This document shows positions 18,888 to 60,738 of a DNA stretch of 64,000 nt, piece after piece. Origin of the DNA: Escherichia coli (lineage in GTDB: Bacteria; Pseudomonadota; Gammaproteobacteria; Enterobacterales; Enterobacteriaceae); NCBI RefSeq assembly GCF_002854065.1, contig NZ_CP024147.1, one strand, 5' to 3'. The translations under genes and the position numbers were made by a program. Within the stretch, counting starts at the first letter, position 1. Each line of letters begins with the position of its first letter. The notes beneath the pieces are model-generated. The model did not search any database. It was given only the letters and a program-made list of their open reading frames with translations, and was not told the DNA's origin.

Positions 18888-18942
18888 GGTGATGCTGCCA
18901 ACTTACTGATTTAGTGTATGATGGTGTTTTTGAGGTGCTCCA

Positions 18943-19218
18943 GTGGCTTCTGTTTCTATCAGCTGTCCCTCCTGTTCAGCTACTGACGGGGTGGTGCGTA
19001 ACGGCAAAAGCACTGCCGGACATCAGCGCTATCTCTGCTCTCACTGCCGTAAAACATGGCAACTGCAGTTCACTTACACCGCTTCTCAACCCGGTACGCA
19101 CCAGAAAATCATTGATATGGCCATGAATGGCGTTGGATGCCGGGCAACCGCCCGCATTATGGGCGTTGGCCTCAACACGATTTTCCGCCATTTAAAAAAC
19201 TCAGGCCGCAGTCGGTAA
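18943..19218 (+). CDS. insA: IS1 InsA, 91 aa (copy 2)
   Basis: Identical translation to copy 1. Confidence 0.92.
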
Positions 19219-19640
19219 CCTCGCGCATACAGCCGGGCAGTGACGTCATCGTCTGCGCGGAAATGGACGAACAGTGGGGATACGTCGGGGCTAAATCGCG
19301 CCAGCGCTGGCTGTTTTACGCGTATGACAGTCTCCGGAAGACGGTTGTTGCGCACGTATTCGGTGAACGCACTATGGCGACGCTGGGGCGTCTTATGAGC
19401 CTGCTGTCACCCTTTGACGTGGTGATATGGATGACGGATGGCTGGCCGCTGTATGAATCCCGCCTGAAGGGAAAGCTGCACGTAATCAGCAAGCGATATA
19501 CGCAGCGAATTGAGCGGCATAACCTGAATCTGAGGCAGCACCTGGCACGGCTGGGACGGAAGTCGCTGTCGTTCTCAAAATCGGTGGAGCTGCATGACAA
19601 AGTCATCGGGCATTATCTGAACATAAAACACTATCAATAA
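19137..19640 (+). CDS. insB: IS1 InsB frame (copy 2; InsAB' by -1 frameshift)
   Basis: Identical to copy 1 except Ser instead of Arg at one position (...AYDSLRK... vs ...AYDRLRK...). Confidence 0.85.
19192..19200 (+). other. IS1 programmed -1 frameshift motif TTAAAAAAC (copy 2)
   Basis: A6C slippery run in the insA/insB overlap. Confidence 0.7.
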
Positions 19641-19655
19641 GTTGGAGTCATTACC

Positions 19656-19664
19656 CGGCGTGGT
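19656..19664. repeat. Target-site duplication (right) of IS1 copy 2: CGGCGTGGT
   Basis: Identical 9-mer abuts both ends. Confidence 0.92.
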
Positions 19665-55547: not shown

Positions 55548-56570
55548 ATGAAAAAAGTGTTATTGATAATCTTGTTATTGCTGGTGGTACTGGGTATCGC
55601 CGCTGGTGTGGGCATCTGGAAGGTTCGCCATCTTGCCGACAGCAAGTTGCTTATCAAAGAAGAGACGATATTTACCCTGAAGCCAGGGACCGGACGTCTG
55701 GCGCTAGGTGAACAGCTTTATACCGATAAGATCATCAATCGCCCACGGGTTTTTCAATGGTTGCTGCGTATCGAACCGGATCTTTCTCACTTTAAAGCCG
55801 GGACTTACCGCTTTACACCGCAGATGACCGTGCGCGAGATGCTGAAATTGTTGGAAAGCGGTAAAGAAGCCCAGTTCCCGCTGCGACTGGTAGAAGGGAT
55901 GCGTTTGAGCGACTACCTCAAGCAATTGCGTGAGGCTCCGTATATCAAGCACACGCTGAGTGACGATAAGTACGCCACCGTAGCGCAGGCACTTGAACTG
56001 GAAAACCCGGAGTGGATTGAAGGTTGGTTCTGGCCAGACACCTGGATGTATACCGCCAATACTACCGATGTCGCGTTACTCAAGCGAGCGCACAAGAAAA
56101 TGGTGAAAGCGGTCGATAGCGCCTGGGAAGGGCGTGCGGACGGTCTGCCTTATAAAGATAAAAATCAGCTGGTGACGATGGCATCAATTATCGAAAAAGA
56201 AACCGCCGTTGCCAGTGAACGCGATCAGGTTGCCTCGGTATTTATCAACCGTTTACGCATTGGTATGCGCCTGCAGACCGACCCGACCGTGATTTACGGG
56301 ATGGGAGAGCGTTATAATGGCAAACTTTCTCGTGCAGACCTGGAAACGCCGACAGCGTATAACACCTATACCATTACCGGTTTGCCGCCAGGTGCGATAG
56401 CTACGCCGGGGGCGGATTCGCTGAAGGCTGCTGCGCATCCGGCAAAAACGCCGTATCTCTATTTTGTGGCCGATGGTAAAGGTGGTCACACGTTTAATAC
56501 CAATCTTGCCAGTCATAACAAGTCTGTGCAGGATTATCTGAAAGTGCTTAAGGAAAAAAATGCGCAGTAA
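55548..56570 (+). CDS. mltG: Endolytic murein transglycosylase MltG (YceG), 340 aa
   Basis: N-terminal TM helix and YceG-like domain. Confidence 0.92.
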
Positions 56571-57201
56571 GTATATCGTCATTGAGGGGCTGGAAGGCGC
56601 AGGCAAAACTACCGCGCGTAATGTGGTGGTTGAGACGCTCGAGCAACTGGGTATCCGCGACATGGTTTTCACTCGGGAACCTGGCGGTACGCAACTTGCC
56701 GAAAAGTTAAGAAGCCTGGTGCTGGATATCAAATCGGTAGGCGATGAAGTCATTACCGATAAAGCCGAAGTTCTGATGTTTTATGCCGCGCGCGTTCAAC
56801 TGGTAGAAACGGTCATCAAACCTGCGCTGGCTAACGGCACCTGGGTGATTGGCGATCGTCACGATCTCTCCACTCAGGCGTATCAGGGCGGAGGACGTGG
56901 TATTGACCAACATATGCTGGCAACACTGCGTGATGCTGTTCTCGGGGATTTTCGCCCCGACTTAACGCTCTATCTCGATGTTACCCCGGAAGTTGGCTTA
57001 AAACGCGCGCGTGCGCGCGGCGAGCTGGATCGTATTGAGCAAGAGTCTTTCGATTTCTTTAATCGCACCCGCGCCCGCTATCTGGAACTGGCTGCACAAG
57101 ATAAAAGTATTCATACCATTGATGCCACCCAGCCGCTGGAGGCCGTGATGGATGCAATCCGCACTACCGTGACCCACTGGGTGAAGGAGTTGGACGCATG
57201 A
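56560..57201 (+). CDS. tmk: Thymidylate kinase Tmk, 213 aa
   Basis: P-loop [10 protein letters not shown]; start overlaps the mltG end. Confidence 0.95.
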
Positions 57202-58202
57202 GATGGTATCCATGGTTACGACCTGATTTCGAAAAACTGGTAGCCAGCTATCAGGCCGGAAGAGGTCACCATGCGCTACTCATTCAGGCGTTACCGGGCA
57301 TGGGCGATGATGCTTTAATCTACGCCCTGAGCCGTTATTTACTCTGCCAACAACCGCAGGGCCACAAAAGTTGCGGTCACTGTCGTGGATGTCAGTTGAT
57401 GCAGGCTGGCACGCATCCCGATTACTACACCCTGGCTCCCGAAAAAGGGAAAAATGCGCTGGGCATTGATGCGGTACGTGAGGTCACCGAAAAGCTGAAT
57501 GAGCACGCACGCTTAGGTGGTGCGAAAGTTGTCTGGGTAACCGATGCTGCCTTACTAACCGACGCCGCGGCTAACGCATTGCTGAAAACGCTTGAAGAGC
57601 CACCAGCAGAAACCTGGTTTTTCCTGGCTACCCACGAGCCTGAACGTTTACTGGCAACATTACGTAGTCGTTGTCGGTTACATTACCTTGCGCCGCCGCC
57701 GGAACAGTACGCCGTGACCTGGCTTTCACGCGAAGTGACAATGTCACAGGATGCATTACTTGCCGCATTGCGCTTAAGCGCCGGTTCGCCTGGCGCGGCA
57801 CTGGCGTTGTTTCAGGGAGATAACTGGCAGGCTCGTGAAACATTGTGTCAGGCGTTGGCATATAGCGTGCCATCGGGCGACTGGTATTCGCTGCTGGCGG
57901 CCCTTAATCATGAACAAGCTCCGGCGCGTTTACACTGGCTGGCAACGTTGCTGATGGATGCGCTAAAACGCCATCATGGCGCTGCGCAGGTGACCAATGT
58001 TGATGTGCCGGGCCTGGTCGTCGAACTAGCAAACCATCTTTCTCCCTCGCGCCTGCAGGCTATACTGGGGGATGTTTGCCACATTCGTGAACAGTTAATA
58101 TCTGTCACAGGCATCAACCGCGAGCTTCTCATCACCGATCTTTTACTGCGTATTGAGCATTACCTGCAACCGGGCGTTGTGCTACCGGTTCCTCATCTTT
58201 AA
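57198..58202 (+). CDS. holB: DNA polymerase III delta-prime subunit HolB, 334 aa
   Basis: ATGA overlap with the tmk stop; AAA+ clamp-loader-like with CxxC zinc module (CGHCRGC). Confidence 0.93.
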
Positions 58203-58212
58203 GAGAGACATC

Positions 58213-59010
58213 ATGTTTTTAGTCGACTCACACTGCCATCTCGATGGTCTGGATTATGAATCTTTGCATAAGGACGTGGATGACGTTCTGGCGAAAGCCG
58301 CCGCACGCGATGTGAAATTTTGTCTGGCAGTCGCCACAACATTACCGGGTTATTTACACATGCGGGATCTGGTAGGCGAACGTGACAACGTCGTATTTTC
58401 TTGTGGCGTGCATCCACTCAACCAGAATGATCCCTACGATGTAGAAGATTTACGCCGTCTGGCGGCAGAAGAGGGTGTTGTAGCGCTGGGTGAAACCGGG
58501 CTGGATTATTATTACACACCGGAAACTAAAGTACGTCAGCAAGAGTCCTTCATCCATCATATCCAGATTGGTCGTGAACTGAACAAGCCGGTTATCGTCC
58601 ATACCCGTGACGCCCGCGCCGATACGCTGGCAATTCTGCGCGAAGAAAAAGTGACGGATTGCGGTGGCGTACTACACTGTTTTACAGAGGACAGAGAAAC
58701 GGCGGGCAAATTACTGGATCTCGGATTTTACATCTCCTTTTCCGGCATTGTGACCTTCCGTAATGCGGAGCAACTGCGCGATGCTGCGCGTTATGTCCCC
58801 CTGGATCGGTTACTGGTGGAAACTGACTCACCTTACCTTGCGCCGGTACCGCATCGAGGAAAAGAGAATCAACCTGCGATGGTTCGTGACGTTGCAGAAT
58901 ACATGGCTGTGTTGAAAGGTGTTGCCGTTGAAGAACTGGCGCAGGTAACCACCGATAACTTCGCCCGTCTGTTTCACATCGACGCTTCCCGCCTTCAATC
59001 CATCCGTTGA
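58213..59010 (+). CDS. ycfH: TatD-family metal-dependent hydrolase YcfH, 265 aa
   Basis: [16 protein letters not shown]... with TatD HxH motif. Confidence 0.9.
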
Positions 59011-59269
59011 ATGAGTTTTTTTAAAGCTCGTAATTAATGGCTAAAACGAGTAAAGTTCACCGCCGAAAATTGGGCGGTGAATAACCACGTTTGAAATATT
59101 GTGACATATGTTTTGTCAAAATGTGCAACTTCTCCAATGATCTGAAGTTGAAACGTGATAGCCGTCAAACAAATTGGCACTGAATTATTTTACTCTGTGT
59201 AATAAATAAAGGGCGCTTAGATGCCCTGTACACGGCGAGGCTCTCCCCCCTTGCCACGCGTGAGAACGT

Positions 59270-59320
59270 AAAAAAAGCACCCATACTCAGGAGCACTCTC
59301 AATTATGTTTAAGAATGCAT
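59270..59320 (+). promoter_or_regulatory. ptsG translation-initiation region (target of sRNA SgrS in E. coli)
   Basis: RBS AGGAG 8 nt upstream of ATG 59305. SgrS pairing at this site is established knowledge for E. coli ptsG, not computed here. Confidence 0.45.
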
Positions 59321-60738
59321 TTGCTAACCTGCAAAAGGTCGGTAAATCGCTGATGCTGCCGGTATCCGTACTGCCTATCGCAGGTATTCTGCTGGGCGTC
59401 GGTTCCGCGAATTTCAGCTGGCTGCCCGCCGTTGTATCGCATGTTATGGCAGAAGCAGGCGGTTCCGTCTTTGCAAACATGCCACTGATTTTTGCGATCG
59501 GTGTCGCCCTCGGCTTTACCAATAACGATGGCGTATCCGCGCTGGCCGCAGTTGTTGCCTATGGCATCATGGTTAAAACCATGGCCGTGGTTGCGCCACT
59601 GGTACTGCATTTACCTGCTGAAGAAATCGCCTCTAAACACCTGGCGGATACAGGCGTACTCGGAGGGATTATCTCCGGTGCGATCGCAGCGTACATGTTT
59701 AACCGTTTCTACCGTATTAAGCTGCCTGAGTATCTTGGCTTCTTTGCCGGTAAACGCTTTGTGCCGATCATTTCTGGCCTGGCTGCCATCTTTACTGGCG
59801 TTGTGCTGTCCTTCATTTGGCCGCCGATTGGTTCTGCAATCCAGACCTTCTCTCAGTGGGCTGCTTACCAGAACCCGGTAGTTGCGTTTGGCATTTACGG
59901 TTTCATCGAACGTTGCCTGGTACCGTTTGGTCTGCACCACATCTGGAACGTACCTTTCCAGATGCAGATTGGTGAATACACCAACGCAGCAGGTCAGGTT
60001 TTCCACGGCGACATTCCGCGTTATATGGCGGGTGACCCGACTGCGGGTAAACTGTCTGGTGGCTTCTTGTTCAAAATGTACGGTCTGCCAGCTGCCGCAA
60101 TTGCTATCTGGCACTCTGCTAAACCAGAAAACCGCGCGAAAGTGGGCGGTATTATGATCTCCGCGGCGCTGACCTCGTTCCTGACCGGTATCACCGAGCC
60201 GATCGAGTTCTCCTTCATGTTCGTTGCGCCGATCCTGTACATCATCCACGCGATTCTGGCAGGCCTGGCATTCCCAATCTGTATTCTTCTGGGGATGCGT
60301 GACGGTACGTCGTTCTCGCACGGTCTGATCGACTTCATCGTTCTGTCTGGTAACAGCAGCAAACTGTGGCTGTTCCCGATCGTCGGTATCGGTTATGCGA
60401 TTGTTTACTACACCATCTTCCGCGTGCTGATTAAAGCACTGGATCTGAAAACGCCGGGTCGTGAAGACGCGACTGAAGATGCAAAAGCGACAGGTACCAG
60501 CGAAATGGCACCGGCTCTGGTTGCTGCATTTGGTGGTAAAGAAAACATTACTAACCTCGACGCATGTATTACCCGTCTGCGCGTCAGCGTTGCTGATGTG
60601 TCTAAAGTGGATCAGGCCGGCCTGAAGAAACTGGGCGCAGCGGGCGTAGTGGTTGCTGGTTCTGGTGTTCAGGCGATTTTCGGTACTAAATCCGATAACC
60701 TGAAAACCGAGATGGATGAGTACATCCGTAACCACTAA
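59305..60738 (+). CDS. ptsG: Glucose-specific PTS enzyme IICB PtsG, 477 aa
   Basis: [33 protein letters not shown]...; EIIC membrane domain and C-terminal EIIB with phosphorylatable Cys in the [10 protein letters not shown] context. Confidence 0.97.

Follow-up and report, generated by a model that had tools for sequence, protein, structure and literature searches.

The overlapping junctions that join mltG, tmk and holB are the ordinary packing of a described Escherichia coli housekeeping operon and are already known. On balance, we consider it probable that this operon, in which spacing is minimal or negative and purifying selection holds the tmk and holB ribosome-binding sites within the closing codons of the genes before them, is translated by mixed initiation. 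The additions made here are only quantitative: the synonymous constraint on these ribosome-binding sites, the lack of a conserved occluding structure, and the recognition of pabC-mltG as the junction that appears most in need of coupling. The window, i.e. the whole stretch of DNA that was analysed, covers 64,000 nucleotides of an E. coli chromosome (NZ_CP024147.1), and the features discussed below are collected in Table 1.

The preliminary description of this DNA had treated mltG, tmk and holB as one chain at the end of the fab cluster. The overlaps in that chain are real, but it was drawn too narrowly, omitting pabC (+2) and ycfH (+10), and the attachment to the fab cluster does not hold. An intrinsic terminator of fabF lies upstream of pabC, and pabC-mltG-tmk-holB-ycfH is therefore a separate five-gene operon beyond that terminator rather than the tail of the fab genes. 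The successive junctions of the unit have spacings of +2, -11, -4 and +10 nt. Between its genes we found no strong terminator-like or promoter-like site, the counts being at the level of shuffled sequences, and an Rfam scan of positions 54500-59400 at a permissive threshold (E <= 1) returned zero matches. Antisense open reading frames over the junctions (56253-56753 and 56998-57213, minus strand) lack a Pfam match, and the longer one (166 codons), which runs across the mltG-tmk junction, was open in just 8 of 77 species, so both were rejected as spurious.

The gene identities are secure. All five genes, pabC, mltG, tmk, holB and ycfH, gave full-length NCBIfam equivalog matches, and the RefSeq boundaries are identical in the E. 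coli genomes that match at 100% identity and in K-12 MG1655 (b1096-b1100). Protein structures in the PDB have the same termini: Tmk corresponds to 4TMK (residues 1-213) with one substitution (V54L) in 213 residues, the delta' subunit encoded by holB corresponds to 1A5T (residues 1-334) with a few amino-acid differences, and the MltG C-terminus, ...LKEKNAQ, is that of 2R1F (to residue 340). The names mltG, tmk and holB, which had been assigned from the letters alone, are thus correct by NCBIfam, RefSeq annotation and PDB termini. Over the region 54700-59100, two complete E. coli genomes matched at 100% identity, and 5,424 of 5,426 matched at 95-100%; the annotation shows the same arrangement in these 5,424 genomes. 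Compared with the b1096-b1100 cluster of K-12, gene order, boundaries and overlaps are identical, and nothing of substance differs. The span 56560-57201, under which the preliminary description had filed the whole chain, is exactly the tmk coding sequence.

Table 1. Features of the pabC-mltG-tmk-holB-ycfH unit and its surroundings, with positions given in the numbering of the window.
Feature	Position	Strand	Remarks
fabF intrinsic terminator	54638..54663	+	AAAAGGTCCG-CTTG-CGGGCCTTTT + TT; hairpin of 10 bp plus U-run, present in the MFE and the centroid fold
pabC, aminodeoxychorismate lyase	54736..55545	+	first gene of the unit; strong SD TAAGGAG, -8.5 kcal/mol
pabC-mltG junction	55543..55550	+	pabC stop TAG 55543-55545, 2 nt, mltG ATG at 55548; read from the sequence
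mltG (yceG), endolytic murein transglycosylase	55548..56570	+	NCBIfam NF007619, 1-340 of 340; annotation
TATAAT hexamer in mltG (Y256-N257), candidate	56313..56318	+	perfect hexamer from our own scan; poor -35 GTGATT, 18-nt spacer
tmk SD AAGGA, in mltG codons K335-E336	56550..56554	+	duplex with 16S -6.1 kcal/mol; spacing 4-5 nt
A7 run, spacer from SD to tmk ATG	56554..56560	+	'slippery' motif behind the GeneTack frameshift-cluster listing
mltG/tmk overlap, 11 nt	56560..56570	+	ATGCGCAGTAA; mltG TAA 56568-56570, tmk ATG at 56560
tmk, dTMP kinase	56560..57201	+	TIGR00041
holB SD AAGGAG, in tmk codons K209-E210	57184..57189	+	8 nt before the ATG; -8.3 kcal/mol
ATGA, holB start over tmk stop (-4)	57198..57201	+	tmk TGA 57199-57201, holB ATG 57198-57200
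holB, DNA polymerase III delta' subunit	57198..58202	+	NF005941, 1-334 of 334
ycfH, TatD-family metal-dependent hydrolase	58213..59010	+	last gene of the unit; full-length NCBIfam match

Both overlaps had been placed exactly to the base in the preliminary description, the 11-nt overlap of mltG and tmk as judged from the sequence and the list of open reading frames, and the holB ATG on the tmk stop as the ATGA at 57198-57201. The arrangement had also been called conserved, and this was borne out. We scanned one genome per species with Tmk and obtained 80 Enterobacteriaceae loci, 84-98% identical, among which the -11 overlap of mltG and tmk is kept in 76 of 79 species and the -4 overlap of tmk and holB in 77 of 80. 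Within E. coli, a 51-nt query spanning the tmk-holB junction was present in 5,423 of 5,426 genomes.

The conservation extends to the nucleotides around the two starts. The mltG-tmk junction sequence, cttAAGGAAAAAAATGcgcagTAA, is nearly invariant in Enterobacteriaceae, and so is the motif AAGGAAAAAAATG, which constitutes the ribosome-binding site of tmk. Its AAGGA shows zero synonymous variation in 76 species, and the A7 run that follows is invariant across the same number of sampled species. At the second junction, GGAG-N8-ATGA (GGAG-cagggcgc-ATGA) hardly changes across the 80 species, although the neighbouring codons and amino acids vary. We quantified this constraint by computing synonymous-codon entropy on codon alignments. 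The mean over mltG was 1.22 bits, whereas codons 335-338 (K-E-K-N) had zero entropy, and the six-codon window of lowest entropy was the last one of the gene. Of the 532 amino-acid-conserved degenerate codons of mltG, tmk and holB, nine were invariant, and six of these nine lie at the two junctions; only 2 of 277 three-codon windows were invariant throughout, both within mltG 335-338. The codons AAG GAA AAA are situated upstream of the tmk ATG and are not dual-coding. Here the constraint acts on the RNA, namely on the SD AAGGA and its A-rich spacer. No synonymous positions in mltG, tmk and holB are more tightly constrained than those of the two embedded ribosome-binding sites.

Beyond the family, a word-index protein search with Tmk returned Enterobacteriaceae and a few chimeric assemblies only. 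We therefore describe more distant relatives from a wider sample, consisting of representatives of the 50%-level Tmk clusters (41-58% identical) that were traced to their contigs and read through automatic gene calls. The order fabF/pabC-YceG-tmk-holB-tatD recurs among these relatives. Their YceG-tmk spacings were -4, +8, -1 and -4, and the loci with an identified holB after tmk had overlaps of -1, -14, -17 and -31; tmk overlaps of -4 and -10 were found next to a cut downstream reading frame without Pfam assignment. In three distant loci, tmk was followed by something other than holB. Every sampled distant locus in which holB follows tmk is overlapping, the longer overlaps being uncertain as products of automatic gene calling. 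The tmk-holB overlap survives even in two reduced genomes of endosymbionts (599 kb and 454 kb) from which mltG has been lost. The exact AAGGAAAAAAATG is confined to enterics, with SD-like motifs before tmk elsewhere. Judged from these loci, adjacency and tight packing are old, and the exact 11/4 geometry is a trait of the family.

Overlaps as such are common. In the window, 5 of 51 co-directional neighbour pairs overlap. Co-directional overlaps account for about 15% of gene pairs in most prokaryotic groups, and among unidirectional E. coli pairs 707 of 2,987, about a quarter, fall at spacings of -8 to +6, with -4 the most frequent spacing overall; a further 203 pairs lie at +9 to +12. The word striking, which had been used for the arrangement, was too strong, as no spacing class is more frequent in prokaryotes than such overlaps, and some 70% of close E. 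coli pairs (69.6% of those tightly spaced) encode proteins that form no complex. The linking of functionally unrelated enzymes is therefore not unusual. The bare occurrence of the overlaps is not beyond chance; the conserved feature is.

How would such junctions be translated? On terminating at the UAA of mltG or the UGA of tmk, a ribosome would be only a few nucleotides away from the following AUG. At the tmk UGA, it would already cover the holB AUG, and at the mltG UAA the tmk AUG would lie 5 nt behind the P-site codon. The adjacent SD would then help re-initiation at the next AUG, which would be termination-reinitiation coupling, and the same SD sites of tmk and holB would also permit fresh loading of 30S subunits. 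Translational coupling is plausible on this geometry, above all for tmk-holB. The size of any contribution of upstream translation to downstream initiation, like the contribution itself, is something we infer, and one coupled unit, as claimed in the preliminary description, is at most a plausible reading of the geometry.

The individual junctions probably differ in this respect. The mltG gene has no recognisable SD, its duplex with the 16S 3' end amounting to just -1.9 kcal/mol, whereas tmk and holB reach -6.1 and -8.3 kcal/mol. These conserved SDs give tmk and holB each a usable independent initiation site. Because mltG lacks an SD and starts at a spacing of +2, pabC-mltG would be, on sequence grounds, the junction that depends most on coupling. 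Among 79 Enterobacteriaceae, 43 have the +2 spacing here and 24 have a -4 overlap instead. Coupling is probably strongest from tmk to holB, with the -4 ATGA, and from pabC to mltG, with +2 and no SD, and probably weakest from mltG to tmk, where the A-rich site is open and lies downstream of an inferred internal promoter.

Precedents exist for the -4 geometry. Of five native -4 overlaps examined in E. coli, four proved to be coupled and one, bioBF, did not (Huber et al., 2019). The tmk-holB junction shares with the coupled pairs hyfHI, astDB, ydbH-ynbE and menDH (Huber et al., 2019, 2023) the canonical -4 ATGA and an SD within the 3'-terminal part of the preceding gene; it differs from them in that any coupling there is predicted from the sequence and its products are not subunits of one complex. 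The mltG-tmk overlap is, at 11 nt, longer than the enriched and tested overlap classes of -1, -4 and -8. Huber et al. (2023) used spacings of -8 to +10 to predict reinitiation, a range just missed by mltG-tmk but covering the other three junctions of the unit. Reinitiation is known to drop steeply with distance. In Pseudomonas putida, the tmk-holB overlap has been described as a 'predicted translational coupling architecture' and was rebuilt as TGATG in viable strains (mBio 2023, PMC10653934). There too, tmk overlaps holB with fabF, pabC and mltG flanking, and the same study notes that tmk typically adjoins holB in gamma-proteobacteria, with mltG flanking. The case differs from ours in species, in the genomic island that splits the P. 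putida tmk, and in that coupling was designed in rather than measured (PMC10653934).

We also asked whether RNA structure bears on the choice between mechanisms. Folding predictions leave the initiation region of tmk unpaired (z = -0.64). In E. coli, the SD and AUG of holB fall within a predicted hairpin, which is marginal (z = -1.65; 11 of 200 shuffles fold equally well). A conserved structure over the holB start was considered and rejected, as an alignment of 45 species gave a consensus of -2.06 kcal/mol with 0 compensatory pairs. Without a conserved occluding structure at either holB or tmk, the model in which the upstream ribosome unfolds the ribosome-binding site finds no comparative support here, which leaves SD-assisted termination-reinitiation as the route for any coupling. 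A 2025 review regards unfolding and scanning models as possibly both applicable and the matter as unsettled. In a kasugamycin translatome, holB was average (1.25, p = 0.23) and gave no hint of 70S-type reinitiation, a value that says nothing either way because whole mRNAs were measured.

Tight packing could also have arisen without any coupling. In that case, the overlaps would be a by-product of selection for short spacing together with drift of starts and stops, fresh ribosomes would load at each gene's own SD, and the nucleotide constraint would reflect only the need to keep SDs inside coding sequence. We regard this as possible, although rather unlikely. The SD sites of tmk and holB are strong and correctly spaced, the tmk site is open and holB carries no conserved occluding structure, all of which speaks for it. 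The variation of overlap length outside the Enterobacteriaceae, from -1 to -31 for tmk-holB and from -4 to +8 for mltG-tmk, looks as if only proximity mattered. The uncoupled -4 overlap of bioBF provides a precedent, and no complex of MltG, Tmk and HolB is known, so that a fixed stoichiometry is not obviously needed. However, four of the five native -4 pairs tested in E. coli were coupled, and a ribosome terminating at ATGA would occupy the holB initiation site, so some interplay would be hard to avoid. Moreover, tmk and holB overlap wherever holB follows tmk in our sample, the reduced endosymbionts included.

An internal promoter for tmk and holB would likewise favour packing without coupling. 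Such an intragenic promoter for the 'tmk-holB operon' has been inferred from Cappable-seq (bioRxiv 10.1101/2024.06.16.599206). In the 57-codon E. coli project, a fitness defect of the fabH-ycfH segment was traced to recoded intragenic promoters, the preprint counts the 'tmk-holB operons' among the cases, and insertion of promoters partly rescued fitness (bioRxiv 10.1101/2024.06.16.599206). Our own scan picked up the TATAAT hexamer within mltG listed in Table 1, which is kept in only 40 of 76 species and is therefore no more than a candidate for this published promoter inference. If a promoter in mltG feeds tmk and holB, part of tmk translation would be independent of mltG translation.

A functional rationale for the linkage, by which it would fix the ratio of the peptidoglycan strand terminase, dTTP synthesis and the clamp loader during growth, is very improbable. 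Many proteobacterial relatives retain the order fab-pabC-mltG-tmk-holB-tatD, and this and the regular adjacency of tmk and holB in gamma-proteobacteria (PMC10653934) would fit such coordination. Against it, mltG is dispensable for the linkage: it was lost from the endosymbiont loci and is absent from others while tmk-holB remains. Unrelated genes sometimes follow tmk elsewhere, and about 70% of tight E. coli pairs encode unrelated proteins. More improbable still is that the zero synonymous change in AAGGAAAAAAATG marks more than a ribosome-binding site, namely an element of regulation (for instance an A-tract bound by a protein or by S1, or a site of low-level recoding) that might tune Tmk and thereby HolB relative to MltG by growth or nucleotide status; if true, the element would link cell-wall and replication supply.

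The A7 run itself has a history as a recoding signal. It is an A_AAA_AAA-type run, invariant in the 76 species, and tmk is read in frame +1 relative to mltG. GeneTack placed the junction in a cluster labelled +1, whose 100 genes come from 25 genera and carry a poly-A/T stretch in 93% of cases (Antonov et al., 2013; PMC3711429). The sequence tested for this 'Thymidylate kinase' cluster (984773919), beginning GATTATCTGAAAGTGCTTAAGGAAAAAAATGCGCAGTAAGTATATCG..., is identical to the window from position 56533 onward and represents the same locus. Antonov et al. (2013) cloned exactly this E. coli mltG-tmk sequence and saw no frameshift product; their supplement lists the exact sequence with an empty efficiency column (PMC3711429). 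They placed the thymidylate kinase cluster in the translational-coupling class and reported downstream initiation for constructs of clusters of that class, thymidylate kinase included (PMC3711429). The first of the two junctions, mltG-tmk, is therefore already covered by their result. The A-run is fully explained as the spacer of the SD, and the motif is not kept outside the Enterobacteriaceae. The C-terminal domain of MltG is periplasmic, and a cytoplasmic kinase fused to it would be mislocalised. We reject, on the published negative test of the exact sequence (PMC3711429), the reading that the run drives a +1 frameshift or transcriptional slippage into an MltG-Tmk fusion, to which we give next to no credence.

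What follows from the embedded ribosome-binding sites is mainly practical. Those of the essential genes tmk and holB lie within the preceding coding sequences, where no synonymous change is tolerated in nature, which matters to genome engineers. As the sites are embedded upstream, recoding, deleting or inserting sequence in mltG or tmk can be polar. Both the 57-codon E. coli project and the P. putida work on tmk (PMC10653934) have run into this. The locus also offers a convenient native comparison of -11, -4, +2 and +10 junctions in one operon. The last of these, holB-ycfH, has the ycfH start 10 nt past the holB stop, a spacing that is kept in 67 of 79 species and fits the '+10 nt peak' typical of E. 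coli, and the SD duplex of ycfH reaches -5.4 kcal/mol.

On sequence grounds, the junction within the operon that most likely requires translational coupling is pabC-mltG, where no Shine-Dalgarno sequence was recognisable for mltG (-1.9 kcal/mol for the duplex with the 16S 3' end). The spacing of +2 at this junction is replaced by a -4 overlap in 24 of 79 Enterobacteriaceae. The junction is absent from the chain of linked genes, mltG-tmk-holB, drawn in the preliminary description.

At the upstream end of the operon, the operon promoter should be located within the 70 nt separating the intrinsic terminator of fabF from pabC; this terminator is missing from the list produced by a simple consensus scan. 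In the 57-codon genome preprint, an intragenic promoter for tmk-holB was inferred from Cappable-seq (bioRxiv 10.1101/2024.06.16.599206). The perfect TATAAT hexamer inside mltG, conserved in 40 of 76 species, may be this promoter.

Coordinates of features in and around the operon and elsewhere in the window
Feature	Position	Strand	Description
ymdB-clsC overlap region	7730-7788 (reference-strain coordinates; offset of ~777 nt in the window)		
IS1 copy	18888-19657		770 bp; 99.9% identical to IS1B of strain CUWW06
Intrinsic terminator	54638-54663	+	clean; directly 3' of fabF
pabC-mltG junction	55543-55550	+	pabC stop, 2 nt, mltG start
TATAAT	56313-56318	+	perfect hexamer; within mltG, ~240 nt 5' of tmk

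Two reduced endosymbiont genomes, of 599 kb (locus L087, CP132901.1) and 454 kb (locus L092, CP135049.1), retain fabD-fabG-acpP-(pabC)-tmk-holB-tatD, while both mltG and fabF are gone. The tmk-holB overlaps in these genomes are, as called, 31 nt and 14 nt long, respectively. The longest annotated overlap in the window is that of ymdB-clsC with 59 nt, and mdoG-mdoH and flgI-flgJ overlap by 8 nt and 1 nt, respectively.

Some database entries were doubtful. An enterobacterial mltG-tmk-holB locus was found on a contig labelled Chryseobacterium sp. 18061 (L040, CACSKA010000011.1), and its Tmk is 87% identical to that of E. coli; this entry of the species-representative collection is probably a contaminant or a mislabelled assembly. 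Two Tmk entries of the protein database, P0001 and P0003, are aberrant: a 255-aa protein that contains internal duplications, and a PanB-Tmk chimera of 316 aa. Both look like assembly artefacts rather than natural fusions.

The reference strain is otherwise near-identical to the window, but its IS1 element disrupts csgD instead of occupying the position found here, and the window therefore derives from a different strain.
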